Made by a program: the position numbers and the translations under genes. 32,000 nucleotides of DNA from Gemmata obscuriglobus (GTDB lineage Bacteria > Planctomycetota > Planctomycetia > Gemmatales > Gemmataceae): the NCBI RefSeq assembly GCF_008065095.1, contig NZ_CP042911.1, positions 5,580,001-5,612,000 on the forward strand, written 5' to 3'. Positions 6,613 through 31,800 of the stretch are shown piece after piece; within the stretch, counting starts at the first letter, position 1; the number at the start of each line of letters is the position of its first letter. The notes beneath the pieces were generated by a model. The model was not told the origin of the DNA. It was given only the letters and a program-made list of their open reading frames with translations, and did no database searches.

Positions 6613-6688
6613 ACGCCAAGGGGACCGCTCGCCAAGAGCCACCCAATCCTGACGCGCCCCCCCGAAGTTCCGTGATCCGTGAAAGCAG

Positions 6689-6716: not shown

Positions 6717-6762
6717 GATAGTGCCATATTGCTTCTCGCCCCAACGCCTCGCCCGCCCTCGC

Positions 6763-7200
6763 ATGGTCCGGCTGTTCGTTAATCTCGTGCTGATCCCGTG
6801 CCTGCTGCTAACGCAGTTCGCCGCGGTGCCGCACGCGCACGCCGGCGGTTCAACCGGAACTTCACACGAGGGGCACCCGCACTTCCACTTCCACCTGTTC
6901 GGGTCGGACCCCGCGACCGACGGGCTCCGCGCGTGTTTCGATGCCGAATGTGCGGACACCGCCAGTGCCCGATCCGCGCCGCCGTGGGATCACGACGCCG
7001 ACGCCGTGTACGTCGAATCGACCACGGCCTCACCAGAACGCGAGAAGCACCTCGCCCCGGAGTTTATTGCAGAACTGGCACCGGCGCTGGTGCCGCTCCT
7101 CCGTGACACCGACGCACCTGTAGCCCCGCGACTCGACGACCGCATTCACCTCCCGGTCCGCTGCCCGCTGTACGTCCGGTTCCTCGCGCTCACAATTTAG
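6763..7200 (+). CDS. Small His-rich exported/membrane protein (145 aa), function unknown, first gene of the RND cluster
   Basis: ATG 6763 gives MVRLFVNLVLIPCLLLTQFAAVPHAHAGGSTGTSHEGHPHFHFHLFG...PPWDHDADAVYVE...RCPLYVRFLALTI. There is an N-terminal hydrophobic segment followed by a His cluster (HAH, HEGHPHFHFH). Third codon positions are almost all G/C in my hand reading, so it looks coding. I recognise no family. Confidence 0.6.
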   Translation: MVRLFVNLVLIPCLLLTQFAAVPHAHAGGSTGTSHEGHPHFHFHLFGSDPATDGLRACFDAECADTASARSAPPWDHDADAVYVESTTASPEREKHLAPEFIAELAPALVPLLRDTDAPVAPRLDDRIHLPVRCPLYVRFLALTI

Positions 7201-14394: not shown

Positions 14395-17300
14395 TCAATT
14401 GGCACTTTTTGCCCCAAGGACAACACGAACGGCATGTTCCCGGCCGTCGTCGCGCAGCAGGATCGCGAGTTCGGGAAGTTGCGTGCCGTTCAGCCACACT
14501 TCGCGAACTCCGGATTCGACCCGATCAGGGTTTTCGACACGACACCGGTACACCGTCCCGCCGTGTCGGTACTCGATCTCAAACTCACCCCACTCCGACG
14601 GAACGCGCGGATCGAACGAGAGCCGGTCGCCGCGTTTGGTGAACCCGAGGATCGTTTCCAGCGCGGCGCGGTAGAGCCAAGACGCAGAGCCGGTGTACCA
14701 CGTCCACCCGCCGCGCCCGACGTGCGGTGCCACGCCGTACACGTCCGCCGCGACCACATACGGCTCCACCTTGTACAGCTCCACACCCTCAGGGGTTGCG
14801 GCGTGCGCGAGCGGGTTCAGCATGTTCCACAGCGCAACCGCTTCGGTCCCCCGCCCGAGGCCGGCCAGCGCCTGAACGAGCCAGATGGCCGCGTGCGTGT
14901 ACTGCCCGCCGTTCTCGCGGATGCCCGGAACGTACCCCTTGATGTACCCGGGCTCGAGCGTCCCGCGGTCGAACGGCGGCGCGAACAGCTTCACCAGCCG
15001 CGCGTCACGGTCTACCAGATGCCCCAGGGCGGCGTTCACCCCGCGCCGGGCGCGGTCGGGGGCGCCCGCGCCGGACAGCACGGCCCAGGACTGCCCGAGC
15101 GAGTCGATGCGGCACTCGTCGTTCGCGCGCGCCCCGAGCGGGGTGCCGTCGTCGAACCAGGCGCGCAAGTACCAGTCGCCGTCCCAGGCGTGCTCCTCCA
15201 CCGCGCCCCGGAGCTGCTCGGCCTCCGCCGCGAGGCGCCGGGCCGTGTCGGGGTCGCCGTGCCCTGCGGCCAGTTCGCCGAACTGCTTCCGCACGAGGAT
15301 CTGGAACCACGCCACCCACACGCTCTCGCCCGTCCCGCCGGCGCCGACCAGGTTCATGCCGTCGTTCCAGTCGCCGCACCCCATAAGCGGGAGCCCGTGC
15401 GGGCCGAGCTTCCAGCCGTGCGCCAGCGCCCGCAGGCAGTGCTCGTAAATCGGCGCGGTCTGCTCGGACACGGACGGCTGGAAGTACTCTTCTTGCTCCT
15501 CGGCCTTGAGCGCGGGGCCGCGCAGGAACGGCACCTCCTCGTTCAGGACGGTCGTGTCGTTCGTCACCGCGACGTACTGGGCCACAGCGTACGGGAGCCA
15601 CAAGAAGTCGTCGGAGAAGCGGGTGCGGACGCCGCGCCCGGTCGGCGGGTGCCACCAGTGCAACACGTCGCCTTCCGGGAACTGGTGCGCGGCGGCCCTC
15701 AGGATCTGCTCCCGCGCCTGGGCGGGTTCGGCGTACAGCAGTGCCATCGCGTCCTGAAGTTGGTCGCGGAACCCGTACGCGCCGCCGGACTGGTACAGCG
15801 CGGTTCGCCCCCAGAACCGGCACGCCAACACTTGATACGGCAGCCACCCGTTCACCAGCACGTCGAGCCCGGGTTCGGGCGTGCGCACCCGCACCGTTGA
15901 AAGCCGGCGCTCCCACGCGGCAACCACCTCGCGCAGCGCCTGCTCCGCCCGCACCGGATCGCGGTACTCGGTCGCAAATTTCGCCGCGGTCGCCGCGTCC
16001 ACGGCTTGACCGAGTACGAACACGATTTCGGCCGTGCCGTCGGCGGCCAACTCGAACCGCCCCAGGAGGGCGGCGCACGGGTCGAGCGCCGGCCCGGCGA
16101 GGTCGCTCAGGCCGACGCGCCGCAGCGCCGCGGGGTGCCCAGGTGAGCGGTTCCGGCCCAGGAACTCGGTCCGGTCGCCGGTCAGCGTGCGGGGCCGCAG
16201 GCTCACGTCCGCGAACGCGACCGCCGAACCGAAATCCTCGTTAAAAGCGCACCGAGCCAGGAGGGTGCCGGAGTTCGGATCGACCTCGGTAACGACGTGC
16301 GTCGCGGTGTGTTCGCGGTTGGTCCCGAGCACCCAGTCCGCGAACAGCGCGGCCGACAGCCGGCGCGCGCGGCCGGCGCGGTTGGTGACTTTGAGGCGCA
16401 ACACCTTCACCGGGTCCGCGACCGGCACGAACAGCGTGAGTTCGGTACAGAGCCCGTCGCGGTCGGCGGCGTAGGTCGTGTACCCGTGCCCGTGGCGCGT
16501 CTCGGTCGGGCCGCCGCACGGGCGCGGGGTGACGCTCCAGAAGTGCCCGGTCTCCTCGTCGCGCAGGTAAACCACCTCGACCGGCGGATCGGTGACGGGG
16601 TCGTTCGCCCACGGCGTGAGGCGGTTCGACTGGCTGTTACCGGCCCACGTCGCTCCCGGCCCGGCGTCGGTCGCAAGGCACCCCACCACCGAATTCGCGA
16701 TCACGTTGATCCACGGCGCCGGGGGCGTGCCGGTGACGACGTACTCGCGCCCGTCGGGGCTGAACCCGCCCGTGCCGTTGAAGAAGCGAAGGCCCTCTCC
16801 GGCGTTGCACTCGGTCACGTTCGGTTCGCCCGCGCGTGTGGGCACCAGGTCCGGGGGCAACTTGCTGCCCCGCGCGACGGCGTCGATCTGGTCCGCGAGG
16901 GTGCCGTGGTCGCCGTACAGCACCACCCGCGCGGCGGCCAGGATCAGCGTGCGGTCCTCGCTGCCGGGCTGGACCTTACGAACGAACACCCCGCCCGGGC
17001 GGTCGATGACGTCGCGGCTGTCGCTCGCGCGGGCCAGCGCGGCGAGGTCCTGGTACAGCTCCTCGCGGTAGCTCGCCGGGCGGTCGGCGAGCAGCACCAA
17101 ATCCACCACGAACCCGCGCCCGCGCCAGAACGCGTGCGCCTTGAGCGCCTGCCGCGCCAGGGGCATGCCGTCCCCATCGGACACGCACACGGCGACGATC
17201 GGCACATCGCCCGAGATCCCGGACCGCCACAGCCCCGGCTGGCCGAGCCGGTTCTCGCGCAGCGACGCGGCCGAACGCAGCGCGGCGGGCGGGAACAGGA

Positions 17301-20300
17301 CGTGCCCGGCGAGCCGCTGGAACACGTGCGACTCGGCGGCCGTGATGCCCAGGTGCCGCAGTTCGACCCGGCTGTGCGCCCAGGCGAGATCGAACGCGCG
17401 GTCGGCGGCGGGCAGCGCGTGGTAGTGGTCCGCCAGCGCCAGGGCCGCCTCGCGGGTGTCGGCCACCGCGGTGACGAACGCCAGCGTCGCCCGCCCGCCC
17501 GCGGGGATGCGAACGGTTTTGCGGAGCGCGAACACCGGGTCGAGCACTGACCCCACGGTGCCCGACAGCCGCTTCGTCAGCGCCTCGGGCTCGCCCGGCC
17601 CGCGGCGCCGGCCGAGGAACTTCGCGCGGTCCGTTTCGTGCTCGGTGGCGCGGCCCGCGTGCTCGTCGGCGGCCACCAGATGAACCGCAAATACCGGCTT
17701 TTGGCTCGGCGCCCGCGGGCGCCGGCGACAAATGAGGGCGTCGTACTGCGGCACCCATTCCGTTTCGAGGAACAGCTTCCCGAACGCCGGGTGCGCGAGG
17801 TCGGCGCGCTGGTCGTTCAGCACCACCTCCACAAGGCTGGTGACCTCGAGCGCGCGGGGCCGGGTGTCGTGGTTGACGAGCGTCACCCGGCGCACCTCGG
17901 CGTCGTGGTCGGGGGCCACGACCACTTCCGTCTGCGTTTCGATGAACCCGTCGCGGCGCCGCAGCTCGGCCTTGTCCGCCGAGAAAATGACCTCGTAATA
18001 ATCGGCCGGGGTACACAGCGGCTGGTGCCCGGCGGACCACTCCACGCCCGTCGCCGGGTCGCGCACGTACACGAACGAGCCGTGCGGGTCACGGGTCGGG
18101 TCCGCGCGCCACTTGTTCACCGCCAGCCCGCGCCGGGAGCTGAACCCGCCCCCGGCGTTCGTCACGAGAACCGTGTACTGCCCGTTCGAGAGCAACTGGC
18201 ACCGCGGCGCCGGGGTGGCGGCCGTCGTGAGCCGGCGGCTCACCTCGGACGCGGCCGTGGCCGGGGTCGCTCCCTCCGTCTCGGTGTCCGGGGCGCGCAC
18301 CTCGGGGGCGTCGAGCGGCACCCGCTCCTGGAGCAGCAGTTCGACCGCCCGCACCGCCGGTTCGGCGTGGAGCCGGCGGCAGTGAACGTCGCCCAGCAGG
18401 CGGTTGGTGATCGCGCACAGGCCCATCCCCTGGTGGTGCGCCATGTACGACTTCACCACCCGCCACCGCTCGCCCTTCTTGAGCCGGTCGCGGGTGAAGT
18501 CGATCGCCTCGTAAAACCCGTACTCCCCTTCCCCGCCCGCCCCGCGGAGCATCGTGAAGTTGCCGATCGCGGCGGTGGCGTCGACCATCGTCGCCAGAAG
18601 GGTCGCGTAGGGCGCGACGACCAGGTCCTTCCCCAGCCCGCGCTTGAGCCCCATCCCGGGCACGCCGAACGACTGGTACTGGTAGTCACCCTCCGCGCTG
18701 ACGACCGCGAACCCGGACTCCGACACCCCCCACGGGGTGCCGGTCTCCACCCCGTACTCGATGTGGCGCGCGACGGTCGCGTGGTGCGCCACGTCGAGCA
18801 TCGTTCCCCGCGGCGGCGCGAGGAGCAGCCGCGGCATCAGGTACTCGAACATGGTCCCGCCCCACGAGATCAGCCCCGGCGCGCCGCCGGCGGTCGTGAC
18901 CAGGCGGCCGAGCTGGAACCAGTGCTTCCGCGGCACCACACCCCGCGCGACCGCGAGGAAGCTCGTGAGCGCGGCCTCCGACGCGAGCAGGTCGTAGTGC
19001 GCCGAATCGAGCCGCTCGAGCGGGACGTTGTAACCGATGCTGAAGAGGTGCCGGGACTCGTTGTACAGGAACCCGAAGTCCATCGCGTCCGCGAACCGCT
19101 CGGCCCGCCCCGCGGCCTCCTCCAGCCGCGCGACCAGATCGGCCGCGCGTGACCGCCCCAAAGATTCAGACAGCGGCTCCGCAACGGAACGGGACTCCAG
19201 TTCGGCCCGCAAAGCGGGTAGCCGTTTCGCCCAGTGCCGCGGGCTGTGCGGGGTGTCGAGTTCGCCGAGTGGAGCCGCGCCCCGTTCGCCGGGCGACAGT
19301 GCCCGGAGCACCGGCAGCCACGGGCAGACCGTCTCCAGTTCGGCCCGGAGCGCCTGAATCTGCGCGACCAGTGCCGGCCCCCACGCGCCCGCGCCTTGCA
19401 GGTTCGAGAGCGAGCGGGCGAGCTTGTCGGCCCCTTCCAGCCAGTCGGCCCACGCGAGCAAGGAAGCGGGCGCCGTCGCCAGGTGCGTGCGCAACGCGTC
19501 GGCCGCGCCGGCGGGCAGGTTTTCCGCCGCCAGGTTCAGCGTGTCGAGCAGCCCGCGCGGGGCCGCCGGCGACGGAACCACCTCATCGGCCTTTGCCCGC
19601 AGCCCGTTCTTCACCGCCAGCAAACAGCCGAGCAGGTTCCCGCTATCCACAGTGGACACGTAGTCCGGCGGGAGCGGGCGGAGCGTGGTGGTTTCGTACC
19701 AGTTCAGGAAGTGGCCGCGGAACCGGTCCATCCGGTCGAGCGTGTCGAAGGTGTTGGACACGCGTGTCGCGAGTTCGGTCAGCGTTACGTACCCGAGATC
19801 GTGCGCGGACAGCGTCGACAGGAGCAACAACCCCTTGTTGGTGGGGGACGTGCGGTGCGCCACCACCCCGCGCGGGTCCTCCTGGTAATTGTCGGGCGGG
19901 AGCCAGTTGTCCTCGGCGGTGACGAACGTCTCGAAGAACCGCCACGTCTTACGCCCGGTGCGGCGCAACTCCGCTTCATCCGCCGCCGCCAGCGGGGCCT
20001 CGGCGTCCTTCAGCGGCCGACTCACCAGCCACGCGACCACCGGCGACAGCGCCCACGCCACCAGCCACGGCCCCGCGGCCCACAGCGCCCCGGGACTCGT
20101 CCACGCGACCAGCGCGGCAAGTCCCACCGCGAGCGCCACCGCCTGCCACATCGACCGAACGAACTGTCGCAGCCCGCTCCCGAGCCGCGCCTCGGCGGCC
20201 GCCGCCGTTTCCCACTCGAGCATCTGCCGCCGGGTGACGAGCAGCCGGCGCAGCGTCCGCCCCACGGCGTCGAGCGCGAGCGCCGCTTGGTTCGGCAGGA

Positions 20301-22899
20301 ACACCGCGGCCAGCACCACTTGCCAGAACGTCGCGGGCAGGCTCTGTCGCGCCCCGCGGAGCACCGCCCCGGGCGTCCGGCTCGATACGAAATCGAGCCC
20401 CTGGAGAACCAGTTGGAGCAGCAGCGGCACCGCGAGCACCGCGAGCGCCACGAGCGACCACGCCCACGCCGCCCCGGGAAGCACGGTCCAACCCAACGCG
20501 AGGAGCGCCACCAGCGCGGCCGGCATCAAGCTGCGCCGGAGGTTGTCGAGCACCTTCCAGCGGCCCAGCAGCGTAAGCACGTTTGGTTTGCGCCCGTCGG
20601 CGGTCGGAACGGTGAGCCCGAGCCACGGGAGCAGTTGCCAGTCGCCGCGCACCCACCGGTGCTCGCGCTTCGCGTAGGCGTGGTACTTCGCGGGGAAGTC
20701 GTCGAACACCTCCACGTCCGTGACCAGCCCGCACCGGGCGAAGTTCGACTCGATCAGGTCGTGGCTCAGGATGCTGTTCTCCGGGAACGCGTGTCCGGCG
20801 GTCGCGTGGAACGCTTCCAGGTCGTACAGCCCCTTCCCGGTGAACGTGCCCCACCCGAACAGGTCCTGGTACACATCCGACGACGCGCTCGAGTACGGGT
20901 CGATGCCCGCCGAGCCCGCAAAGATGCGGGCGAACAGCGACCGCAGGCCGGTCTTGTAGAGGAAGCTGACCCGCGGTTGCAAGATCCCGTACCCCGCGAC
21001 CACCCGGCGCCCGTCGGCGGACAGCACGGGGCGGTTGAGCGGGTGCGCCAGCGTCGCAACGAGCCGCCGGGCGGCGTCGCGCGGCAGCACCGTGTCCGCG
21101 TCCAGTGTGAGGACGAACCGGGCCTCAATCGCCGCCGCGTCGCCGGTCTGAACCGTGTAACTGGTGCTCGTGTCCCCCTTCAACAGGCGGTTGAACTCGT
21201 CGAGCTTCCCGCGCTTGCGCTCCCACCCCATCCACGCGCCTTCGGACACGTTGAGCTGGCGCTTGCGGTGAAAGAGGAAGAAGACGTCGGCCTTGCCGCG
21301 GGCGTGCCGCTCGTTCAGCTTCCGAATCCCGTCGGCCGCGACTTTGACCAGCGCGGCGTCGTTCGGCGTCGTTTCCGTGGGGGCGTCGGCCCAGTCGGTG
21401 AGCAGCGCGAACCGGAACTGCGGGTCCGGGTTCGCCAGGTAGTGAAGCTCCAGCCGCTCGCAGAGCGCCGCCGCGCTTTCCGGTTTCGTCAGCATCCCCG
21501 GGATGACGACGATGGTGCGCCACTCGGCCGGCACGCCGGAATTGAAATCGAGCTTCGGCAGCACCCGCGGCGGGAGCACCCGGCACACCGCCGCGTTCAC
21601 CACCGCAACCGCGACCTCGCTCGCGGGAAGCAGGACCGCGAGCCCGACCAGCACGAGCAGCCACACCGACGACGTGACGAGAGCCGTGAGCCCGACGGCG
21701 AGAGCGACCAGCGACACCGTTATCAGCGTCAGCCCGCCGAAATACGTCAGATTCGGGCGGTCCGTCAGGAGCGCGCGCCACCGGTCGCGGAACTTGAACC
21801 GGCACCCCAGCGCGCGGGCGAACGCGCCCCGCCCCTCCGCAACGAGGTGGTATCCGAGGTGCCGCTCGCGCGGGGAGGCGCCCTGCGCGGCCCGGGCGAG
21901 CGCGTGCCGGGCGACGTCCGCCTCGTCGCGCCGGGCCGCCTTGGCGAGTTGCTCCACGGCCTGGCGGTAGCGGTCGCGGGTGGCCGCGTCCTGGTGCCGG
22001 TACACGCCCGTCGGCTCGGCGCGGAGCGCCTCCTCGACCAGACTCGCGTGCTCGAAGAACTGCCCCCAGTCGATCGCGTTCAGCAGGCGCAGGCTGGTGA
22101 CACAGTTCCCGACCGAGACCTGGTTCGCCGCCTGCCGCCGGTGCTCGCGGCGCAGCACCTCGCTCAGGTCGCCGGGCACGTCCGAGATTCCCGGGTTCGT
22201 TTCGCTGAGGTCGCGCACGGCCTGGTGCCAGCCGACCAGGAACGCATCGGAACTGCCTTCCGGGAGCGGCCGGTTGGCCCCGGTCTCGGTCCGGCCGACC
22301 CATTCGAGCGCCCGCGCCCGCTCGGTGCGGGTGCGGAGCATCTGGTCGGCGAGCCGGCGCAGGTTCTCGATCAGCGCGAGCCGGAGCATGATCGGCACCG
22401 CCCACAGTTCGCCGGTGGTGAGCGGAGCGACCTCCTGGTACGCGCGAACGAACCGGAGGAGCTGGCCGTCGTCGAGGTGGCTGTCGGTGTGGGTGACCAG
22501 TTCGACCGCGAGCGCGTAGACCCGTGGGTGCCCGCGGTGCGGCCCGTCCGCGGCCACGGGCAGTTCGTCGGCGTACCCGCGCGGGAGGTCGGTGCGCACC
22601 TCGCGGAGCACGTCCTCAATGACAAAGAAGTTGTCGAGCAGCCACTCCGCGTCCGGCATGAGCGGCTCGGCGCGGGCGGCCTCGGCCGCGGCGTCCCGCG
22701 CGGCGCGGAGCACCGCGGCGTTGTCGCGAAGCCGGGCCAGCAGCGCATGTGAACCCGGGTTCACATGCGCCGGCCCCGCGGCGAGCGAGCGGGCCAGGTC
22801 CGCGAGGCGGTCCGGGCCGAACAGGTCGCCGCGAAACGGTTCAGGAGTCGGTACTTGAGGAGAGGGGTCGTGTCGTTTGCTCGATAATGACCGTTCCAT
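14395..22899 (-). CDS. Cyclic beta-1,2-glucan synthase (NdvB/ChvB/Cgs-type: GT84 glycosyltransferase + GH94 phosphorylase-like C-terminal half)
   Basis: The maximal track ORF has a GTG start at 22986 (2863 aa). ATG at 22899 (2834 aa) is preceded by GGGGAGA, and GC3 is better downstream of it. The size matches known Cgs/NdvB proteins. It has a multi-TM N-terminal half with a GT motif (LTLDADTVLPRDAARRL, REHRWVRGDWQLLPWL). The C-terminal half carries cellobiose-phosphorylase-like motifs (FRDQLQDAMAL, GCGDWNDGMN, ENGGQYTHAA). Confidence 0.9.
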   Translation of the reverse strand: MERSLSSKRHDPSPQVPTPEPFRGDLFGPDRLADLARSLAAGPAHVNPGSHALLARLRDNAAVLRAARDAAAEAARAEPLMPDAEWLLDNFFVIEDVLREVRTDLPRGYADELPVAADGPHRGHPRVYALAVELVTHTDSHLDDGQLLRFVRAYQEVAPLTTGELWAVPIMLRLALIENLRRLADQMLRTRTERARALEWVGRTETGANRPLPEGSSDAFLVGWHQAVRDLSETNPGISDVPGDLSEVLRREHRRQAANQVSVGNCVTSLRLLNAIDWGQFFEHASLVEEALRAEPTGVYRHQDAATRDRYRQAVEQLAKAARRDEADVARHALARAAQGASPRERHLGYHLVAEGRGAFARALGCRFKFRDRWRALLTDRPNLTYFGGLTLITVSLVALAVGLTALVTSSVWLLVLVGLAVLLPASEVAVAVVNAAVCRVLPPRVLPKLDFNSGVPAEWRTIVVIPGMLTKPESAAALCERLELHYLANPDPQFRFALLTDWADAPTETTPNDAALVKVAADGIRKLNERHARGKADVFFLFHRKRQLNVSEGAWMGWERKRGKLDEFNRLLKGDTSTSYTVQTGDAAAIEARFVLTLDADTVLPRDAARRLVATLAHPLNRPVLSADGRRVVAGYGILQPRVSFLYKTGLRSLFARIFAGSAGIDPYSSASSDVYQDLFGWGTFTGKGLYDLEAFHATAGHAFPENSILSHDLIESNFARCGLVTDVEVFDDFPAKYHAYAKREHRWVRGDWQLLPWLGLTVPTADGRKPNVLTLLGRWKVLDNLRRSLMPAALVALLALGWTVLPGAAWAWSLVALAVLAVPLLLQLVLQGLDFVSSRTPGAVLRGARQSLPATFWQVVLAAVFLPNQAALALDAVGRTLRRLLVTRRQMLEWETAAAAEARLGSGLRQFVRSMWQAVALAVGLAALVAWTSPGALWAAGPWLVAWALSPVVAWLVSRPLKDAEAPLAAADEAELRRTGRKTWRFFETFVTAEDNWLPPDNYQEDPRGVVAHRTSPTNKGLLLLSTLSAHDLGYVTLTELATRVSNTFDTLDRMDRFRGHFLNWYETTTLRPLPPDYVSTVDSGNLLGCLLAVKNGLRAKADEVVPSPAAPRGLLDTLNLAAENLPAGAADALRTHLATAPASLLAWADWLEGADKLARSLSNLQGAGAWGPALVAQIQALRAELETVCPWLPVLRALSPGERGAAPLGELDTPHSPRHWAKRLPALRAELESRSVAEPLSESLGRSRAADLVARLEEAAGRAERFADAMDFGFLYNESRHLFSIGYNVPLERLDSAHYDLLASEAALTSFLAVARGVVPRKHWFQLGRLVTTAGGAPGLISWGGTMFEYLMPRLLLAPPRGTMLDVAHHATVARHIEYGVETGTPWGVSESGFAVVSAEGDYQYQSFGVPGMGLKRGLGKDLVVAPYATLLATMVDATAAIGNFTMLRGAGGEGEYGFYEAIDFTRDRLKKGERWRVVKSYMAHHQGMGLCAITNRLLGDVHCRRLHAEPAVRAVELLLQERVPLDAPEVRAPDTETEGATPATAASEVSRRLTTAATPAPRCQLLSNGQYTVLVTNAGGGFSSRRGLAVNKWRADPTRDPHGSFVYVRDPATGVEWSAGHQPLCTPADYYEVIFSADKAELRRRDGFIETQTEVVVAPDHDAEVRRVTLVNHDTRPRALEVTSLVEVVLNDQRADLAHPAFGKLFLETEWVPQYDALICRRRPRAPSQKPVFAVHLVAADEHAGRATEHETDRAKFLGRRRGPGEPEALTKRLSGTVGSVLDPVFALRKTVRIPAGGRATLAFVTAVADTREAALALADHYHALPAADRAFDLAWAHSRVELRHLGITAAESHVFQRLAGHVLFPPAALRSAASLRENRLGQPGLWRSGISGDVPIVAVCVSDGDGMPLARQALKAHAFWRGRGFVVDLVLLADRPASYREELYQDLAALARASDSRDVIDRPGGVFVRKVQPGSEDRTLILAAARVVLYGDHGTLADQIDAVARGSKLPPDLVPTRAGEPNVTECNAGEGLRFFNGTGGFSPDGREYVVTGTPPAPWINVIANSVVGCLATDAGPGATWAGNSQSNRLTPWANDPVTDPPVEVVYLRDEETGHFWSVTPRPCGGPTETRHGHGYTTYAADRDGLCTELTLFVPVADPVKVLRLKVTNRAGRARRLSAALFADWVLGTNREHTATHVVTEVDPNSGTLLARCAFNEDFGSAVAFADVSLRPRTLTGDRTEFLGRNRSPGHPAALRRVGLSDLAGPALDPCAALLGRFELAADGTAEIVFVLGQAVDAATAAKFATEYRDPVRAEQALREVVAAWERRLSTVRVRTPEPGLDVLVNGWLPYQVLACRFWGRTALYQSGGAYGFRDQLQDAMALLYAEPAQAREQILRAAAHQFPEGDVLHWWHPPTGRGVRTRFSDDFLWLPYAVAQYVAVTNDTTVLNEEVPFLRGPALKAEEQEEYFQPSVSEQTAPIYEHCLRALAHGWKLGPHGLPLMGCGDWNDGMNLVGAGGTGESVWVAWFQILVRKQFGELAAGHGDPDTARRLAAEAEQLRGAVEEHAWDGDWYLRAWFDDGTPLGARANDECRIDSLGQSWAVLSGAGAPDRARRGVNAALGHLVDRDARLVKLFAPPFDRGTLEPGYIKGYVPGIRENGGQYTHAAIWLVQALAGLGRGTEAVALWNMLNPLAHAATPEGVELYKVEPYVVAADVYGVAPHVGRGGWTWYTGSASWLYRAALETILGFTKRGDRLSFDPRVPSEWGEFEIEYRHGGTVYRCRVENPDRVESGVREVWLNGTQLPELAILLRDDGREHAVRVVLGAKSAN

Positions 22900-23031
22900 G
22901 CGCGCGCGATTCTCCCCGTGTCGAGAACTGACCGGGGAGCAAATCGGGTGCCGTGTAATCGATGTGCGAAAGCACCGCGCACGCACCGCGCATGAGCGAA
23001 CTGGACAACCTGATCGGGTAAACGTGCGCGA

Positions 23032-23445: not shown

Positions 23446-23964
23446 ACGTTCTCTCGCGTCGTGTTGACCGTTTGGATGCGCCACACTCTCCCTGCACCGG
23501 CGCGCCAAACGCCGCAGCCGGGCCGGCGATCAAATCCTGTGTGCGCGGCCTTAGCCAGAAAACGCTGCTGGGCTCACCGGTTGCTTTAACGTGTTAATTT
23601 ACTAGCGACAGCCAAGGAAAACACAATAGCTTCGAGTTCCAGGTTCTAATTTGGCCCAGTGGCCGCCAAAACGCTCCAACGATTCGTGCCACTCGCAACT
23701 CTAATTGAAACTACTGGAATCACCTTCACACGCAGCCGCGGTCCGCCCGGCGCTCCGCCGCCGCAGAATTTTGTTCTCTCCGGATCGGCAAGACTCTGGA
23801 ACCCGAGGGCCGAATTCGCGCCGGCGCACGAGGGTTCGCTCGCACCTCACGCCCCGCCTGCACCCGGGACCGAAAATGTCGCGCCGGATGCGAGGAGACC
23901 GGTGAGTGGCGACAGCTTGTTGTGCGAGCGGAGATTATGAGCCCGCACCGCAAACCGCAGCAAT

Positions 23965-23993
23965 TTGTTAACCCGCGATTCGCGTTTTATGCT
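23965..23993 (+). promoter_or_regulatory. Candidate promoter upstream of the CheX-like gene
   Basis: TTGTTA (23965-23970), 17-nt spacer, TATGCT (23988-23993), about 110 nt upstream of ATG 24104. Pattern match only. Confidence 0.25.
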
Positions 23994-24103
23994 CTTAACA
24001 CCTGCACGCGCCGACGGGGCACAAGCGAACGAGCGCAGCTCGCCGCGCGTAACCGAAGCGCCCCTCTGACGCACCGCCCCAGACATCGACCGAGTACAGA
24101 CCG

Positions 24104-25822
24104 ATGGTCGCAACACTACCCACCGCCAACACGTTCCCGCCCGCCGTGAGCGAGGCCGTCGAGGGCGCGGCGGCCACCTTCTTCAGCGGTTCGTGCGGGC
24201 TGACGCACGTCCCGGACGCGCAGATTGATGACGCCGTCGACCAGGCGGGCATCATGAGCACCATCTCGTTCGTGGGCGACATCCAGTGGGCGTTCGCGCT
24301 GGCGTTCCCCGAGGAGGCCGCGGTCGGACTCGCCCGCACGTTCGCCGGGTTCGACATCCCGTTCGACAGCGTGGATATGGGCGACGTGATCGGTGAGATC
24401 GTGAACGTGATCGCCGGGGACGTCGTCGGCCGGCTGGCGAAGCAGAAGATCGAGGCCCGGATGTCGCTCCCCACGACGGTGCGTGGGAGCAACGTGTCCA
24501 TGATGATGCCCACGGACGCGCCCGCCACGCGGTTCGTGTTCTCCGGCCCGGCGGGCACGTGCTGGTTCGACCTGGTCGCGACGCCCAAGCCCCTGGCGGC
24601 GCCGGGCCAAGAGGAGAGCCCGGAGGCGGCCACCCGGTGGGGCGGTTCGGACCCGCCCGCGCCGCCCGTGACGCCCGCGCCGGTGGGCACCCTGGCTCCC
24701 GCCCCGGCGCCCGCCGCCGCCCCGGCACCTCACGCCGCGCCGGACCCGTCACAGGACGCCTGGGCCGCGGCGATGGCCGAGGCCGAGCGGCAGATGGCCG
24801 AGCAGGACGCCCTCGACGCCGCCGCACGCGCCGCCGGTCTGACGGCCGGCCCGGCGGTGCAAACCGTCGTCGTCCAGGGGGGCTCCCGGTTGATGCCGCT
24901 GGTGCTGGTGCTGGCCTGCGCCGGGTGGGGCGGGTTGGTCAGCCTCATTGCGGCCGGCGGCCCGCACGGGCCGCCGCCCGAACCCGCGGCCGCGGAGCAC
25001 GCCGAGGGCGCGGCCGCGCCGAAGGCCCCGACCGCAGAGATCGACGAGCTGATCCGGAGCGACCAGTTCGACGACGCCCTCAAGGCGTGTTTCAAGGCCG
25101 CGAAGAAGGACCCCCGACCGAGCGAAACCGCGCTGACGCTCCGCGAGGCCCTGTGCCTCGAGGGCCAGGGCCGCTGGGGCGAGGCCGCCGGGGCGTACCA
25201 GCGCGCCGAGGCGGACCCGGACACGGTCACGTCGGTGGTCGCGCTACTCGGCCAGGCCCGGTGCGCCACGCAGGACGGGTCGTACGTGATCGCCCGCGCG
25301 CTGACGAACCGCGCGCTGCTGCGGTCCGGCGCCCCCGGCTTCCGCGGCACGGCGGTGCGCAAGGACATTCAACACCTCCAGGCGCGGATCGCGCTGCAGG
25401 CGGCCGGCGCGAAGCCGCTGCCCCGGGACGCGAGCGCACGCCCCCTGCTCTCCGCCAGCCCGACCAACGGGCTCGAATGGCTGCCGACGAGCGCGCCCCC
25501 CCCCACCCCGACCGGTGACACGTTCGAGGTGCACCGCATCCTCGGCGCGCCGAAAATGCTCCAGGTGAGCGGTAGCCTCTCCCGCCGCCCGGCGCTTGAG
25601 GTGCTCAACGCGCTCGCCGCCACCGCCGGCTGGAAGGTGCAGGTGAACAGCGACGCGGCCGCGCAACTGAAGTGGGCGGTCGGCCCGATCGAGATCGACC
25701 ACCTCACGCTGCCCGAGTTCCTCAACGTCCTCATGGACGGGACCAGCGTCACGTGGGCGACGGACGGGGACACGTTGCGCCTGGCACTGCCGGCACGCAA
25801 GGAAGCGGCGCCAAAGAAGTAG
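24104..25822 (+). CDS. Membrane-anchored CheX-like phosphatase domain protein with extracytoplasmic TPR-like and STN-like regions (572 aa)
   Basis: Residues 1-160 resemble CheX (IMSTISFVGDIQWAFALAFPEEAAVGLARTFAG...DVIGEIVNVIAGDVVGRLA...MSLPTTVRGS). The motif D94-x3-E98-x2-N101 lies at nt 24383-24406, and Pro123 follows. Next come a P/A-rich linker, one TM helix at aa 263-286 (nt 24890-24961), TPR-like helices (QGRWGEAAGAYQRAEADPD) and a C-terminal module of about 90 aa (PALEVLNALAATAGWKVQVN...LPEFLNVLMDGTSVTWATDGDTLRLAL) that fits the STN pattern. Confidence 0.8.
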   Translation: MVATLPTANTFPPAVSEAVEGAAATFFSGSCGLTHVPDAQIDDAVDQAGIMSTISFVGDIQWAFALAFPEEAAVGLARTFAGFDIPFDSVDMGDVIGEIVNVIAGDVVGRLAKQKIEARMSLPTTVRGSNVSMMMPTDAPATRFVFSGPAGTCWFDLVATPKPLAAPGQEESPEAATRWGGSDPPAPPVTPAPVGTLAPAPAPAAAPAPHAAPDPSQDAWAAAMAEAERQMAEQDALDAAARAAGLTAGPAVQTVVVQGGSRLMPLVLVLACAGWGGLVSLIAAGGPHGPPPEPAAAEHAEGAAAPKAPTAEIDELIRSDQFDDALKACFKAAKKDPRPSETALTLREALCLEGQGRWGEAAGAYQRAEADPDTVTSVVALLGQARCATQDGSYVIARALTNRALLRSGAPGFRGTAVRKDIQHLQARIALQAAGAKPLPRDASARPLLSASPTNGLEWLPTSAPPPTPTGDTFEVHRILGAPKMLQVSGSLSRRPALEVLNALAATAGWKVQVNSDAAAQLKWAVGPIEIDHLTLPEFLNVLMDGTSVTWATDGDTLRLALPARKEAAPKK

Positions 25823-25887: not shown

Positions 25888-26105
25888 ACGGAGGCGGTCC
25901 GCACCCGAAGTGCCCCCCGCCCGGCGAACCGACGGACCGAAAGCGGTACCGCCGCCCAATTCCCACACTTCATCCCTGACATCACACCCCCGCGAGCCGT
26001 GCCCCGTTTGGCTCTTGAGACCGACCGGGGCGGTTGCGTAGTCTCAACAATGGGCCACGGGCAACTTGCGCCCCGCGCCCGCCGACCCGGTTGACAACCT
26101 CTCTG

Positions 26106-29100
26106 ATGACCAAACAGCGAACGCGCGGCCCAAGCGGGGCCGCTCCGGTAGCATCGCACGGCACCGCAAACGGACCGGTCGCACACGCCCCCTTCGGACC
26201 GTGGCCGGTGCTGATCCTGTTGGGGGCGCTGTGCGCCGCGGACGACTCGGGCCGGCTCCCCCCGGGGGTGTGGGCCGCCGGGGGGCTCGCCATCGGCGCG
26301 GCCGCGGGCCTCGGGTTCGTGCGGCTCCGGCGGCACGAACCCGAGGCCCGCGCGACGGCGTACCTCCGACGGGCGATGGACGCGGTGGCAGACGCGGTGT
26401 TCGTCCTGGACCACCGGGAGCGGGTGCTCTTCGCGAACGCAGAGGCGGCCGCGCTCGCGGGGCCGCCCGCGGCCGAACTGGTCGGTCGTGAGGCGAACGC
26501 GTGCCTGCCCGCCGGGCTCGCGGACTGGCTCCGTCGGCGCGGCCCCGCGGGCCAGTCGGTCGAGGTGCCGGGGAGCGAGGGGCGGGTTTACGCCGCGCGC
26601 CGGGTCACCTGGTCCGCCGCTTCCGGGCCGCCGGGGGCGGTCGTGGTCGTGCGGGACCTCACCGACCAGAAGCGCGCGCAACAAGCGGCCGACCGGACCA
26701 CGGCGTACCTGCGCGCCGCGCTGGACCGCCTCGCCGACGGAGTCGTGGTGTCGGACGCCGCCGGGAACCTGCTGGACCTGAACCCGGCCGCGGTGCGGAT
26801 GCACGGGTACGAGCGGGTCGAACAGGCACGGCGGAACCTCGCCGCGCTCCGGGACACGTTCGTCCTGGCGCCGGTCGGCGGCCCGCCGCTGCGGTTCGAC
26901 GAATGGCCCCTCTCCCGGCTGCTGCGCGGCGAGGACGTGGGCGTGTGCGAACTGACGGTGCGGCGCACGGACGTGCCGGTCGAGCGGGTGGTACAGTACA
27001 GCGGGACCCGCGTGCCCGGCCCCGCGGGCGGCACGGAGCTGGTGGTGGTCACGAGCCACGACGTGACCGACCGGCGCCGCGCCGAGGACGAGTTGCGGGC
27101 CAGCGAGCAGCGGTTCCGGGCGTTCGCCGACCACGCCGCCGACGCGTTCTTCCTCCACGACGACCGCGGCACGGTGCTGGACGTCAACCGCCAGGCGCTC
27201 GCGTCCCTCGGGTGCGAGCGGGCCGAGCTGGTCGGCCTCTCCCCGCTCGCGTTCGACCCGGACCTCACGCCGCAGCAGCTCGCGAACAACTCCGAGCGGT
27301 TAAACGCCGGGGAGACGATCGCGTGCGAGACCCGGCACCGGCACACGTCCGGCCGGGTCTTCCCCGTCGAGCTGCGGATCCGCCCGTTCACCGCCGGCGG
27401 GCGGCGCCTCGCCGTCACCCTCGCCCGGGACGTCACCGCGCAGGTCGCGGCCCGGGCGGCGCTGCGGGCGAGCGAGGAGAGTTACCGGCTGCTGTTCGAG
27501 TGCAACCCGCTACCGATGTGGGTGTACCACACGGAAACGCTGGCGTTCCTGGCGGTCAACCCGGCGGCGGTGGCGAAGTACGGGTACACGGCGGACGAGT
27601 TCCTGGCGATGACCCTTCGGGACATCCGCCCCGCCGAGGACGCGGCGCGGCTGCCGGGCGCGGTCGCCGCGGCGGGCGGGAAGCTGTCCGACTCGGGCGT
27701 GTGGCGCCACCGACTCAAGAGCGGGGACCTGATCCAGGCCCGCATCTACTCCCACCCGCTCGAGTTCCGCGGCCGGCCCGCGCGCCTGGTCATGGCGCAG
27801 GACGTGACCGCGCAGCTCGCGGCGGAGCACGCGCTGCGGGAGAGCGAGGAGCAACTGCGGCGCACGCTGGAAGCATCGGCGACGGGGCTCTGGAGCTGGG
27901 ACCTGACCGGCGGCACGATCGCGTGGCAATCGGACCAGGTCCCCGCGTCGTTCCACCCGGGCGGGGCGTTCGACGGCACCGCACACGGGGTGGACCGGGT
28001 GCTCCACCCCGAGGACCGCGAGCGGGTGTGGGCGGCGGCCCGCCGGGCGGTCGCGGCCCGCGACCTGTTCGAGTGCGAGTTCCGGGTGGTGTTCCCGAAC
28101 GGGGGCGGGCGCTGGGTCGCGGCCCGGGGCCGCGCCGCGTACGCCGACGACGGGCGGCCGGTGCGGATGCTCGGCACCATCACCGACGTGACCGCGCGCA
28201 AGACCGCCGAGCTGGAGCTGCAGCGGACGCGGGCGGTCCTCCAGAAGCTGGTCGATCACAGCCCGGCGCTGATCTTCATGACCGGGGCGGACGGGCGGTA
28301 CCTGCTGTTCAACCCGCGGTGCGAGGCGGCGCTCGGGGTGCGGGCCGCGGACGTGCTCGGGCGGACGCCGGCCGAAGCGTTCCCGGCCCCGCTCGCGCGC
28401 AAAATCGCCGAGCGGGACGGCCACGCCCTCAGCACCGGTGTGCCCCAGGTCTCGGAAGAAACGGTACGCACCCCCGACGGGCCGACCCATTTCTCGACCG
28501 TCCGGTTCCCCGTCTCCGGCCCCGACGGGCGCGTCATCGCCCTCGGCGGGGTCGCGATCGACATCACCGCCCGGCGGCGCGCCGAGGACGACCTGCGCGC
28601 CCGCGAGGAGCTGTTCCGGCTCCTCGCCGACGAGTCCCCGCACATCATCTGGGTGAGCGACCGCGACGGGCGCCCCGAGTACACCAACGCCCGGTGGCGG
28701 GAGTACTCCGGCCGCACGGCCGACCAGGCGCGCGAGCAGGGCTGGGCGGGGGCCGTCCACCCGGACGACCGAGAACACTACCGGCGGTCCTGGCGCGAGG
28801 CGCGGGCGCGGGGGGGGGAGCACGAGGCGCAGGTGCGGCTGAAACGGGCCGACGGGGTGTACCGCTGGTTCCTCGCGCGCGCCAAGCCCGTGGGCGGGCC
28901 GGGCGGAACCCGCCGCTGGTTCGGCGCCGCCACCGACATCGAAGAGCAGAAGCAGCGCGAGGCCTCGCTGCTCCGGGCCGACGTCCAAAAGGACGCGTTC
29001 CTGGCGACCCTGGCGCACGAGCTGCGGAACCCGCTGGCCCCGATCGCCGACGTGGCCCACCTCCTGGGCTCCGGCGGGCTCGACGACGGGCGGCTGCGGG

Positions 29101-30110
29101 AGGCCGGTGCGCTGCTCGCGGGGCAGGTCCGGTTGCTCACCCGGCTGGTCGACGACCTGACGGACCTGAGCCGCGTGCGGCGCGGCGCGGTCGAACTGCG
29201 GTGCGAGCCGGTCGCGCTCGCGGACGTGATCCGAACGGCGGTCGAGACCAGCGCCCCGCACATCCGCGCCGCGGGGCACCGACTGTCGCTCGAGCGCCGC
29301 TCGGAGCCGGTGATCGTGCGCGGGGACGCGGTCAGGCTGGCGCAGGTCGTCTCGAACCTCCTGACGAACGCCGCCAAGTACACCCCGCCCGGCGGAAACG
29401 TCTGGCTCGCGCTGGACCGGGACGGAACGGAGGCGGTGGTCCGGGTGCGCGACGACGGCGCCGGCATCGACCCGGCACTGCTGCCCCGCGTGTTCGACAT
29501 GTTCGTCCAGGAGCGGCGCCTCCAGGAACAGGCCCCCGGCGGCCTGGGCGTCGGGCTGACCCTGGCGCAACAAATCGTCGAGCTGCACGGGGGGGCGATC
29601 GACGCGCGCAGCGCGGGGCCGGGCCGGGGGGCCGAGTTCGTGATCCGGCTCCCGCTCGCCGCGACGAACGAGCCGCCCCCGCCCGGCCCGCAGCCGGCGC
29701 CCGCCGGACCGCTCCGGGTGCTCGTCGTGGACGACAACGAGGCCGTCGCGCAGAGCTTCTCGTGGGTCCTGTCGGGGTGCGGGCACACCGTTGCGGTGGC
29801 GCACGACGGCCCGCGCGCGCTCGCGTTGGTGCGCGAGTTCCGCCCCGACGCGGTGCTCCTCGACCTCGGGCTACCGGGGACGAACGGCTGCGGGGTGGCG
29901 CAGGCGATCCGGGAACTGCCGGAGGGGGTCGGGGCGCTGCTCGTGGCCGTCACCGGGTGGGGAACGGAGGACGACCGCCGGCAGACGCGCGGGGCCGGCT
30001 TCGACCACCACCTCACGAAGCCGGTGAACCATCAGGAGCTGACAGCACTCCTGGCAACCGTCTCACGGCAGCACGGCCAAGCGGCAACAGTTCGGAACAC
30101 GTCCGGGTAA
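26106..30110 (+). CDS. Hybrid sensor histidine kinase: 2 short TM segments, 7 tandem PAS domains, HisKA, HATPase_c, C-terminal receiver
   Basis: ATG 26106 (the track start 26034 is a TTG). Seven PAS units are each closed by a D(V/I/L)T..(K/R)..E boundary (RDLTDQKRAQQ, HDVTDRRRAEDEL, RDVTAQVAARAAL, QDVTAQLAAEHAL, TDVTARKTAELEL, IDITARRRAEDDL, TDIEEQKQREASL). The H-box FLATLAHELRNPL places His at nt 29016-29018. N box is NLLTNAAKY, G1 is DDGAGI and G2 is GGLGVGL. The receiver has VVDDNE, LLDLGLPG (Asp at nt 29862-29864), VAVTGWG and HLTKP. Confidence 0.92.
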   Translation: MTKQRTRGPSGAAPVASHGTANGPVAHAPFGPWPVLILLGALCAADDSGRLPPGVWAAGGLAIGAAAGLGFVRLRRHEPEARATAYLRRAMDAVADAVFVLDHRERVLFANAEAAALAGPPAAELVGREANACLPAGLADWLRRRGPAGQSVEVPGSEGRVYAARRVTWSAASGPPGAVVVVRDLTDQKRAQQAADRTTAYLRAALDRLADGVVVSDAAGNLLDLNPAAVRMHGYERVEQARRNLAALRDTFVLAPVGGPPLRFDEWPLSRLLRGEDVGVCELTVRRTDVPVERVVQYSGTRVPGPAGGTELVVVTSHDVTDRRRAEDELRASEQRFRAFADHAADAFFLHDDRGTVLDVNRQALASLGCERAELVGLSPLAFDPDLTPQQLANNSERLNAGETIACETRHRHTSGRVFPVELRIRPFTAGGRRLAVTLARDVTAQVAARAALRASEESYRLLFECNPLPMWVYHTETLAFLAVNPAAVAKYGYTADEFLAMTLRDIRPAEDAARLPGAVAAAGGKLSDSGVWRHRLKSGDLIQARIYSHPLEFRGRPARLVMAQDVTAQLAAEHALRESEEQLRRTLEASATGLWSWDLTGGTIAWQSDQVPASFHPGGAFDGTAHGVDRVLHPEDRERVWAAARRAVAARDLFECEFRVVFPNGGGRWVAARGRAAYADDGRPVRMLGTITDVTARKTAELELQRTRAVLQKLVDHSPALIFMTGADGRYLLFNPRCEAALGVRAADVLGRTPAEAFPAPLARKIAERDGHALSTGVPQVSEETVRTPDGPTHFSTVRFPVSGPDGRVIALGGVAIDITARRRAEDDLRAREELFRLLADESPHIIWVSDRDGRPEYTNARWREYSGRTADQAREQGWAGAVHPDDREHYRRSWREARARGGEHEAQVRLKRADGVYRWFLARAKPVGGPGGTRRWFGAATDIEEQKQREASLLRADVQKDAFLATLAHELRNPLAPIADVAHLLGSGGLDDGRLREAGALLAGQVRLLTRLVDDLTDLSRVRRGAVELRCEPVALADVIRTAVETSAPHIRAAGHRLSLERRSEPVIVRGDAVRLAQVVSNLLTNAAKYTPPGGNVWLALDRDGTEAVVRVRDDGAGIDPALLPRVFDMFVQERRLQEQAPGGLGVGLTLAQQIVELHGGAIDARSAGPGRGAEFVIRLPLAATNEPPPPGPQPAPAGPLRVLVVDDNEAVAQSFSWVLSGCGHTVAVAHDGPRALALVREFRPDAVLLDLGLPGTNGCGVAQAIRELPEGVGALLVAVTGWGTEDDRRQTRGAGFDHHLTKPVNHQELTALLATVSRQHGQAATVRNTSG

Positions 30111-30591: not shown

Positions 30592-31665
30592 CTACGGCAG
30601 GGGTACGTCTTTGAACTCGAACGGTACGGTCACATCGGCGAGTGGCGCGGGCGTTTCGTACACGAGCGCCCACCCTTTCCCGGTCGGGTTAGCGAACCCC
30701 GCCTTCGCGTTCTCGTCGAACCGATGGATGACGCGCAGCGGGCTCGTCTGTTCCGGCTGCGGAATCTCGTACTCGTCGATCGTTACGAAGTTCCCGTCCG
30801 GCGAGCGGAGCCGCAGCCGGTTGTCGCGGAGCCACGGTTGCCCCTCGAAGCTCTGAAACACCGGCTGCCCGGACGGGTAACCGAGTTCCAGCACGACCTC
30901 CCATGTGTTGCCTTTCTTTTGAAGCTTTTTTAGCGCGCCCGTCACGCCTCCCAACGTTTGCGGCGGCGGCAGCGCTCCACCGGGCGCCTCGAACTTAAAC
31001 TCCAGCAGCCGGTCGGCGACGGTCGCGTGAAACGCCCCCGCGAGCGCGGTCAGACGCTGGGCCGTCCGCGGGACGCCCTCGATCTGCACTTTCATCTCGG
31101 CGGTCGCGCCGGACGGAAGCACCTGGGCCGACCCGCCCGTGTCCCGGAGTTTCGACCCCCGGTCGTCGGTCACCTTGCTGACCCGCGGCGTGGTGTCGAT
31201 CCGGTACACCTTCAGTCGCGGCTCCCAATGGGCCAGCAAGGCGACCTCGTGGAACGTGGCGCCCGCGTCGAGCAGCGCGCGGCCGGTGACCCCCTTCGCG
31301 ACCACCCGGAACGGACCGCTCGTAGCGGCGATCTCTTTCGAGTCGCCGCGCGGGAGCAGTTCCACCCGCGCCCCGCTCTCGCGCACCACGATCCGTGCGC
31401 CCGACGTGTCGGCGCTCTGCTGCAACGCGGACCAGAACGGCGCCTTGTCGAACGCGGCCCCGCACTTGGCGTTGACAAGCAACGGCGGTACCGCGATCGG
31501 CACCCCGGACTGCTTCGACAACTCCGCGACGACCTCTCCCAGCGGCGCGCCGGCCTTGGCGAACGTCACGGCGGTCGGGGCCGGAACCGGCGGCTTCGAC
31601 GGTTCCGCCGCGGCCAGCGCCATGAGGGTGCCGAGAGTGAGGGGTATAATGGGCAGCAAGCGCAT
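30592..31665 (-). CDS. Secreted hypothetical protein (357 aa) with an N-terminal STN-like module
   Basis: ATG = complement of 31663-31665. It gives MRLLPIIPLTLGTLMALAAAEPSKPP (signal peptide), then VTFAKAGAPLGEVVAELSKQSGVPIAVPPLL...FWSALQQSADTSGARIVVRESGARVELL. The rest is beta-rich with no recognised family. GC3 is high throughout. The track start at 31722 adds 19 residues. Confidence 0.7.
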   Translation of the reverse strand: MRLLPIIPLTLGTLMALAAAEPSKPPVPAPTAVTFAKAGAPLGEVVAELSKQSGVPIAVPPLLVNAKCGAAFDKAPFWSALQQSADTSGARIVVRESGARVELLPRGDSKEIAATSGPFRVVAKGVTGRALLDAGATFHEVALLAHWEPRLKVYRIDTTPRVSKVTDDRGSKLRDTGGSAQVLPSGATAEMKVQIEGVPRTAQRLTALAGAFHATVADRLLEFKFEAPGGALPPPQTLGGVTGALKKLQKKGNTWEVVLELGYPSGQPVFQSFEGQPWLRDNRLRLRSPDGNFVTIDEYEIPQPEQTSPLRVIHRFDENAKAGFANPTGKGWALVYETPAPLADVTVPFEFKDVPLP

Positions 31666-31800
31666 GCGTGGCTCCCGGTCTCGGGCGGCGTCCGGTCGTA
31701 TAGACGACGCGGAAGGACCCACCTATCCTAACCTTGCTAGAAGAGCCGAGCCACTCGCGGTTCCTGCCCTGCCATCCGCCCGCTCACGAGGACGTTGTCG

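Follow-up and report, generated by a model that had tools for sequence, protein, structure and literature searches.

What is the role of a CheX phosphatase domain that is joined to a membrane anchor and to further folded domains? This question is raised by a gene in a 32,000-nt stretch of the Gemmata obscuriglobus genome (contig NZ_CP042911.1, positions 5,580,001 to 5,612,000 of the forward strand; hereafter the window). Known CheX proteins are soluble, single-domain and ~155-175 amino acids (aa) long. The gene in the window encodes a fusion protein that adds 410 aa to this domain, namely a tether, a transmembrane (TM) helix, a TPR domain and an STN-like domain. The reading favored here, with a probability of roughly 0.55, is that of a membrane-tethered phosphatase of phosphorylated CheY (CheY-P) positioned at a motility-associated site of the cell envelope. 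A preliminary description of the window had instead proposed a sensor phosphatase, in which a periplasmic cue gates dephosphorylation. The position it gave for the open reading frame (ORF), 24104-25822 on the plus strand, is exact; after the upstream stop codon, the first available start is the ATG at 24104. The parts of the gene are listed below, together with the evidence that defines them.

24104..25822, + strand: whole fusion ORF, 572 aa plus stop codon, with the order CheX, TM, TPR, STN-like; G. obscuriglobus GobsT_47670

24140..24580, + strand: CheX phosphatase domain, predicted to be cytoplasmic, aa 13-159 (Pfam, PDB profile, Foldseek, ratio of nonsynonymous to synonymous substitution rates (dN/dS))

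24584..24742, + strand: proline/alanine (P/A)-rich disordered linker, aa 161-213, whose length and sequence vary (predicted local distance difference test (pLDDT), indels, dN/dS)

24743..24838, + strand: acidic, Ala-rich, conserved helix, predicted to be cytoplasmic, aa 214-245 (…DAWAAAMAEAERQMAEQDA…)

24890..24961, + strand: single TM helix, putative signal anchor with the N-terminus inside and the C-terminus outside (N-in/C-out), aa ~263-286 (hydrophobicity, flank charges)

24962..25030, + strand: Pro-rich juxtamembrane linker, predicted to be periplasmic, aa 287-309 (pLDDT <50 through aa 306, dN/dS)

25031..25408, + strand: TPR domain, predicted to be periplasmic, aa 310-435, seven helices (Pfam below threshold, Foldseek, dN/dS)

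25520..25789, + strand: C-terminal STN/secretin-N0-like domain, aa 473-562 (model, Foldseek, Pfam matches of homologues, dN/dS)

The first ~160 aa had been read as a CheX fold, and this assignment is borne out. Pfam family PF13690 (CheX) matches aa 51-146 (E=2.1e-12, 47.4 bits, gathering cutoff 27). The Thermotogales CheX equivalog of NCBIfam scores 26.5 bits at a cutoff of 280, so that the protein is not a member of that equivalog. A profile of the N-terminal 165 aa matches the PDB entries 3hm4 and 3h4y (E ~1e-7), then 3iic, 6vpw and 3h2d; 1xko and 3hzh are matched weakly. When the PDB is searched with Foldseek, with TM-scores normalised to the target (TMt), the CheX structures 3hm4, 3iic, 6vpw, 1xko and 3hzh rank first (TMt 0.65-0.80, E 2e-8 to 5e-6), and CheC, FliY and FliM reach a TMt of only ~0.5. 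Direct reading of the first CheX helix (aa 13-31) finds no second E-x2-N, which leaves one active site. The domain shares its fold, the single active-site helix and the D-x3-E-x2-N…P motif with the CheX proteins of T. maritima (1XKO), B. burgdorferi (3HZH) and V. vulnificus (6VPW). The small size of these proteins is not shared, as the fusion has 572 aa with a TM helix and two more folded domains.

The catalytic residues are D94, E98 and N101 (nt 24383-24406), and P123 follows at nt 24470-24472. An ungapped alignment places the motif on the E-x2-N…P of 3hm4, 3h4y and 6vpw, and its four residues are invariant in 7/7 orthologues, in agreement with the retained catalytic signature noticed earlier. 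The spacing N-x21-P deviates by one residue from the x22 of the published signature. The same x21 is present in 3hm4, 3h4y and 6vpw; it is therefore normal for this subgroup. The V. vulnificus protein 6vpw, with E91/N94 as its E-x2-N, is an active CheY-P phosphatase by experiment (PMC12887009). In B. burgdorferi CheX, the catalytic pair is E96/N99, and N99 inserts into the active site of CheY (PMC3035606). The CheX domain of the fusion is proposed to be a catalytically competent phosphatase with CheY-P as its presumed substrate.

Is the fusion itself real? An assembly or annotation artefact, in which a sequencing frameshift joined two genes, has to be considered, since the two halves are separate ORFs in a related metagenome-assembled genome (MAG). 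The identical 572-aa protein (100% identity to GobsT_47670; named 'hypothetical protein' or 'chemotaxis protein CheX' in databases) is, however, present on 13 contigs, including the complete genome of 9.03 Mb. Full-length collinear orthologues number seven, with 45-100% identity, and come from G. obscuriglobus, G. algarum, G. massiliana and several MAGs. Six of them are additional to the window protein, stem from independent assemblies and are collinear without a frame break. The two ORFs of the split relative share one reading frame, interrupted by a single stop codon, which points to an evolutionary change of a stop codon and not to a frameshift. An artefact is accordingly given next to no probability, and the frameshift-joined pair of genes was rejected as a candidate explanation.

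The individual parts of the protein evolve at different rates. Computed per region against three orthologues, dN/dS is 0.20-0.29 for the CheX domain, 0-0.06 for the cytoplasmic helix (close pairs), 0.09-0.43 for the TPR domain and 0.25-0.45 for the STN-like domain. It rises to 0.51-0.78 in the P/A linker and to 0.34-1.2 in the Pro-rich juxtamembrane linker. These values indicate purifying selection on every folded module (dN/dS <0.5). They also bear on the idea that the CheX domain is non-catalytic, either as a CheY-P-binding or scaffold module (sink or adaptor) at the membrane or as part of a decaying, functionless fusion. A stand-alone CheX is retained in a che operon of G. obscuriglobus, which would allow catalytic redundancy. 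Yet the domain and all other folded modules are constrained, and D94, E98, N101 and P123 are kept across orthologues down to 45% identity, so that a non-catalytic role is very improbable.

The fusion is rare. An exhaustive hidden Markov model (HMM) search of 1.84 billion cluster representatives returned 1006 significant matches, among which only three representatives have the full-length fusion architecture, all from the Gemmata clade. The conservation of the full-length protein, a point left for checking in the preliminary description, is thus seen in seven collinear orthologues within this clade. In the literature that could be searched, no description of a membrane-anchored or Planctomycete CheX protein, or of this architecture, was found. 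The protein can be regarded as an unusual form within a known enzyme family, limited to one genus-level clade.

The same HMM search found many stand-alone relatives of the CheX half with 160-175 aa. Tandem CheX-CheX proteins of 320-350 aa (P0011, P0013, P0014, P0018, P0023 and P0079) are close to the fused CheX domain. In another lineage, P0114 (297 aa) and P0136 (218 aa) combine CheX with a P/A linker and a coiled-coil-like tail but have no TM helix. The latter two proteins suggest that CheX has been fitted with tethering modules more than once.

On which side of the membrane do the parts of the protein lie? Only one hydrophobic segment is present (aa ~263-286; Kyte-Doolittle mean over 19 residues 1.99-2.26 in 7/7 orthologues), as expected from the single TM helix of the preliminary description. 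Across 23 family members, the 15 residues on the N-terminal side of this segment comprise 91 K/R and 6 D/E, and the 15 residues on the C-terminal side 43 K/R and 49 D/E. This asymmetry is a strong positive-inside signal and therefore argues for N-in/C-out, and the CheX domain is placed in the cytoplasm because no signal peptide is present. The data indicate a bitopic inner-membrane protein with TPR and STN-like domains that are probably periplasmic. The family-wide flank charges thereby support the earlier picture of a cytoplasmic enzyme with a periplasmic C-terminus. To our knowledge, all solved STN/N0 domains are periplasmic.

A full-protein AlphaFold2 model, built from the 7-sequence alignment, has an overall pLDDT of 57.7, with ~65-82 in the folded domains. 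From the N-terminus on, it contains an alpha/beta CheX domain (aa 13-159), disorder at aa 161-213, a long helix at aa 215-243, a TM region of low confidence, seven TPR-like helices (aa 311-433), a 37-aa spacer and the C-terminal module (aa 473-561). Between the CheX domain and the TM helix lie ~100 residues, ~55 of which form the disordered, fast-evolving P/A linker; this linker has a pLDDT <50 and contains indels in the orthologue alignment. A G/P-rich segment also precedes the TM helix, and ~25 Pro-rich disordered residues come after it.

The TPR region is only partly visible to sequence searches. Pfam TPR_16 matches aa 311-373 below its cutoff (25.9 vs 32.7 bits), homologues of the region pass the Pfam TPR cutoffs, and its modeled fold matches the 3-TPR domains of Hop TPR2A, CHIP and PcrH in Foldseek (TMt ~0.75, E ~1e-3). 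Cys329, Cys351 and Cys387 are invariant in the orthologue alignment. The TPR fold of the preliminary description is thus present, but the length of about 180 aa given there is too high: the domain covers ~125 aa (aa 310-435) and is followed by a 37-aa unstructured spacer that leads to the STN-like module.

The STN-like C-terminus had been guessed from a hydrophobic pattern. The window protein's own sequence has no STN match in Pfam (even at E<=10), NCBIfam or PDB searches, and a profile of the C-terminal half matches only designed TPR/PPR proteins in the PDB. Among 22 homologous C-terminal modules, nine have STN matches in Pfam (best E=2.2e-5) and four have DotD matches; a weak FecR_C match in one of them is the only sequence-level match to FecR. 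Modeled alone, the module, a beta-hairpin followed by beta-alpha-beta and beta-alpha-beta-beta elements, reaches a pLDDT of 84. The top 50 Foldseek matches of this model are mostly of the STN/secretin-N0 type (E 1.4e-3 to 0.3, TMt <=0.64). They include the N0 domain of PilQ, the signalling domains of PupB, PupA, FecA, FpvA and FoxA, the N0 domains of GspD, XcpQ, InvG and MxiD, and DotD. The periplasmic STN domains of the anti-sigma regulators PupR (CCSSD, 6ovm) and BDI_1681 (4m0n) are also among the fold matches. A few phage or contractile-injection baseplate proteins appear in the top 50 as well. Fold search and homologues agree with the guess, and the designation STN/secretin-N0-like holds, with modest statistical strength, at the level of predicted fold and homologues.

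Does the putative periplasmic half act as a sensor? The architecture could be explained by a sensor phosphatase in which an envelope or periplasmic cue at the TPR/STN module alters CheX activity via allostery, via oligomerisation of the normally dimeric CheX, or via FecR-like proteolysis that releases soluble CheX. The layout parallels that of the FecR/PupR anti-sigma regulators, which are bitopic N-in/C-out proteins in which a single TM helix connects an effector in the cytoplasm with a C-terminal STN-like domain in the periplasm, and the PupR CCSSD and the anti-sigma factor BDI_1681 are found by fold. Purifying selection on the periplasmic modules and the supported N-in/C-out topology are likewise compatible with sensing. 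In contrast to FecR/PupR, the fusion carries CheX in place of an anti-sigma domain and has a TPR domain interposed, and its loci have no conserved TonB-dependent transducer or extracytoplasmic function (ECF) sigma neighbors; a protease gene is not consistently found near the orthologues either. The tether on the cytoplasmic side is largely disordered over its ~100 aa, Pro-rich disorder follows the TM helix, and neither Pfam nor the model contains a continuous helix or a HAMP/S-helix-like transmitter. As the TM helix is flanked by flexible, fast-evolving linkers and no rigid transmitter is present, allosteric gating by the periplasmic half appears unlikely, judging from predicted disorder and evolutionary rate. 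Control via oligomerisation or FecR-like regulated proteolysis is possible. In relatives, moreover, the same periplasmic module is a separate protein without an enzyme, encoded beside structural flagellar genes. Taken as a whole, the sensor phosphatase is a doubtful explanation, and the gating by a periplasmic cue put forward in the preliminary description is unsupported, given the disordered linkers around the TM helix and a partner half that is not a dedicated sensor.

What, then, is the partner half? Many proteins of ~700 aa begin with ~360 aa that correspond to this half (acidic helix, TM helix, TPR domain and STN-like domain) and extend C-terminally with further TPRs. A scan of species genomes found 15 loci in Gemmata, Frigoriglobus, Singulisphaera, Isosphaera and Gemmataceae MAGs. 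Both G. algarum and Gemmata sp. IIL30 have the fused gene and a long unfused paralogue. The acidic helix motif (…W-A-A-A-E-A-E-A-E-R-E-L-A…) occurs in four settings, i.e. in the fused form, in the split form, in a che-linked partner (locus L020) and in flagellin-linked partners (L013 and L019), so that L006, L013, L019 and L020 represent the unfused proteins with this motif. Being common to fused and unfused partners, the helix is part of the partner half, not of CheX, and is an ancestral N-terminal element of the family. By these comparisons, the partner half is best described as a truncated paralogue of a separate membrane TPR/STN family and not as a dedicated sensor. A 349-aa copy of the partner half (P0008; L009 222-1403) starts inside the acidic helix, has a non-CheX sequence upstream and lies on a contig of 2.4 kb; truncation or rearrangement of the gene is the probable explanation.

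The genomic neighborhood connects the long paralogues to motility. In seven loci from Gemmataceae and Isosphaeraceae (L013, L014, L016, L019, L021, L022 and L023; neighbors identified by Pfam and blastp), the long paralogue is encoded divergently beside the flagellin gene fliC, as for example at L013 9500-11869. Where the contig reaches further (L013, L021 and L022), fliD, fliS, flgF, flgG and flgA come next. In L020, the long partner gene is divergent to cheY-cheX-cheA. Since the partner genes pair with either the flagellin cluster or che operons, anchoring and localisation fit better than ligand sensing. The ~700-aa family is a candidate Planctomycete flagellar accessory protein. TPR-rich periplasmic scaffolds of the flagellar motor are known elsewhere, namely PflA/PflB, MotC/MotK and FlcB (PMC12054838, PMC13023049), and the comparison of the partner family with them is an analogy. 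The long paralogues resemble PflA/PflB of Campylobacter and Helicobacter, MotC/MotK and FlcA/FlcB of Borrelia in that they are membrane-anchored and TPR-rich, are predicted to be periplasmic and have flagellar structural genes as neighbors. The Planctomycete family differs from these scaffolds by an embedded STN/N0-like domain and the acidic cytoplasmic helix.

How did the CheX domain come to be joined to this family? A split form is found in at least four independent assemblies (L006, L007, L008 and L012), where a 170-aa cheX product is followed by a 381-aa partner (P0009). The operon has the order PAS-containing methyl-accepting chemotaxis protein (MCP), cheR/cheD fusion, cheB, cheY, cheX and, last, the partner. 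The split cheX and the partner share a frame, with a single TGA and 22 sense codons (66 nt) before the partner ATG, and one stop-codon change would therefore interconvert the split and fused states. Together with the fused form, the split pair is Rosetta-stone evidence in favor of the tethered-phosphatase reading. In the Planctomycetia MAG with locus L006, the pair is located at 5422-7146 and the intervening TGA at 5932-5934. The split form may represent the ancestral state before fusion, a fusion that a nonsense change has split, or a readthrough site that yields both soluble and anchored CheX. The che operons of these Gemmataceae also encode a single 497-505-aa protein that combines a CheR methyltransferase with a CheD deamidase (L006 2230-3723, L026 6710-8227).

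G. obscuriglobus retains a stand-alone CheX (GobsT_55410, 173 aa, 54% identical to the fused domain) that ends a canonical cheB-cheY-cheX operon (L025) with a 147-aa CheY, and the operon of G. palustris reads MCP-cheR/D-cheB-cheY-cheX. As the canonical operon is kept, the fusion is an added, specialised copy; its closest unfused relatives follow cheY in che operons. The fused CheX domains group together in a neighbour-joining tree (39/60 bootstraps), as a clade that is sister to the stand-alone che-operon CheX of Gemmata. The split-form CheX and the CheX of L020 branch outside this pair, and the linkage of CheX and partner is therefore older than the fusion. The simplest history that suggests itself is an old CheX-partner linkage, followed in Gemmata by the fusion of a duplicated cheX to a short partner and by departure of the fused gene from the che operon. 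At the G. algarum locus, an MCP gene is kept just past the hybrid kinase gene. Its product shares 53% identity with the split-operon MCP, and it looks like a remnant of the ancestral che neighborhood.

From these elements, the proposed role of a tethered phosphatase can be put together. Within the genus Gemmata, a duplicated che-operon cheX would have been fused to a short gene of the membrane TPR/STN family. The CheX domain would lie in the cytoplasm on a largely flexible tether of ~100 residues that leads to one TM helix, with the TPR/STN module in the periplasm. The role of the added parts would be spatial: the periplasmic module and the cytoplasmic helix would dock the protein at a fixed motility-associated site of the envelope, plausibly the flagellar base, and CheY-P would be hydrolysed locally, by analogy with motor-resident FliY or cluster-localised CheZ. 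FliY (a CheC-like phosphatase joined to the C-ring protein FliN in Bacillus and Thermotoga) and CheZ at poles or clusters follow the same principle of a CheY-P phosphatase that is fixed at a motility structure. FliY, in contrast, is cytoplasmic and is placed in the C-ring by its FliN homology, whereas the fusion, in which no FliN or CheZ homology was found, would be anchored by a TM helix and a periplasmic module at a presumed location.

Several observations weigh against this role. The flagellar link of the partner family consists of gene neighborhood only, and it is that of the long paralogues and not of the short fused form. In G. obscuriglobus, G. massiliana, L002 and L003, the fused gene itself has neighbors unrelated to motility, and the Frigoriglobus locus L017 has no motility neighbors. 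When the long partner was compared with the PDB, only generic TPR matches were found, with no specific similarity to solved flagellar scaffolds. The bootstrap support of the fusion clade is only 65%, and the E-values of the STN-like fold search are modest, from 1.4e-3 upward.

A related but rather improbable explanation is a CheY-P phosphatase that is coupled across the envelope. The TPR/STN module would dock on a periplasmic part of the flagellar motor or on another envelope machine, and a cue or assembly state would control where or whether CheX acts, e.g. via oligomerisation or FecR-like proteolytic release. If this were the case, the ~700-aa paralogues would be an unrecognised Planctomycete flagellar accessory protein, and the acidic helix would recruit chemotaxis components.

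A further question is posed by the gene downstream of the fusion, which encodes a kinase.

26034..30110, + strand: membrane hybrid histidine kinase with multiple PAS, HisKA, HATPase_c and REC domains (Pfam)

The kinase contains at least five PAS domains and has its receiver (REC) at the C-terminus (aa 1229-1340). The CheX domain might serve this receiver and not a chemotaxis CheY. The kinase gene begins 211 nt downstream of the fusion gene on the same strand, no intrinsic terminator was detected between them, the adjacency is kept in G. algarum, and in L021 a long partner paralogue likewise precedes a PAS-HisKA-HATPase-REC kinase. But the adjacency is missing in G. massiliana, L002 and L003, the nearest unfused CheX proteins are encoded directly after a single-domain CheY in che operons, and the orthologous MCP kept at the G. 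algarum locus suggests a che-operon remnant with an inserted kinase. Service to the kinase is thus an unlikely role for the domain. The kinase is probably not part of the system, and its receiver is a weakly supported possible alternative substrate. As a pathway-defining neighbor, the kinase was set aside, with an adjacency found only in the two closely related species G. obscuriglobus and G. algarum. The kinase gene of L021 (9996-11927) lies directly after the long partner, which may be accidental or reflect a weak association that recurs.

Scans of the surroundings of the fusion gene for Rfam families, promoters and terminators were negative. In G. algarum, the cytidine deaminase gene and the CheX-fusion gene are separated by a 1380-aa ORF without a Pfam match (L005 3377-7519). 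In this place, G. obscuriglobus has only a 595-nt intergenic region (window 23509-24103) of lower GC content (~0.63), and searches of it for Rfam families and a sigma70-like promoter were negative. At window 30592-31722 (minus strand), a 376-aa ORF has no Pfam match; G. algarum has a PAS-HAMP-MCP gene at that position. A 2863-aa ORF at window 14395-22986 (minus strand), with GT2, glucoamylase-like and GH94 domains, is similar to cyclic beta-1,2-glucan synthase. It is overlapped by many long spurious ORFs on both strands because of the GC content of ~72%.

The time-scale of chemotactic signalling is determined by CheY-P phosphatases, and the gradient of CheY-P is shaped by where in the cell these enzymes are found. 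The known solutions are soluble CheX and CheC, FliY integrated into the C-ring, and CheZ recruited to receptor clusters or poles. To these, a CheX domain that is anchored in the membrane and carries a periplasmic TPR/STN module would add a fourth, in a phylum with an unusual cell envelope and almost unstudied motility and signalling. The comparative data indicate an uncharacterised membrane family that is paired with flagellar genes in Gemmataceae and Isosphaeraceae, and its fused, split and unfused states are natural experiments on the interaction of CheX with its partner. If the periplasmic module did regulate the activity of the enzyme, this would be a new input route into chemotaxis that bypasses receptors and CheA.

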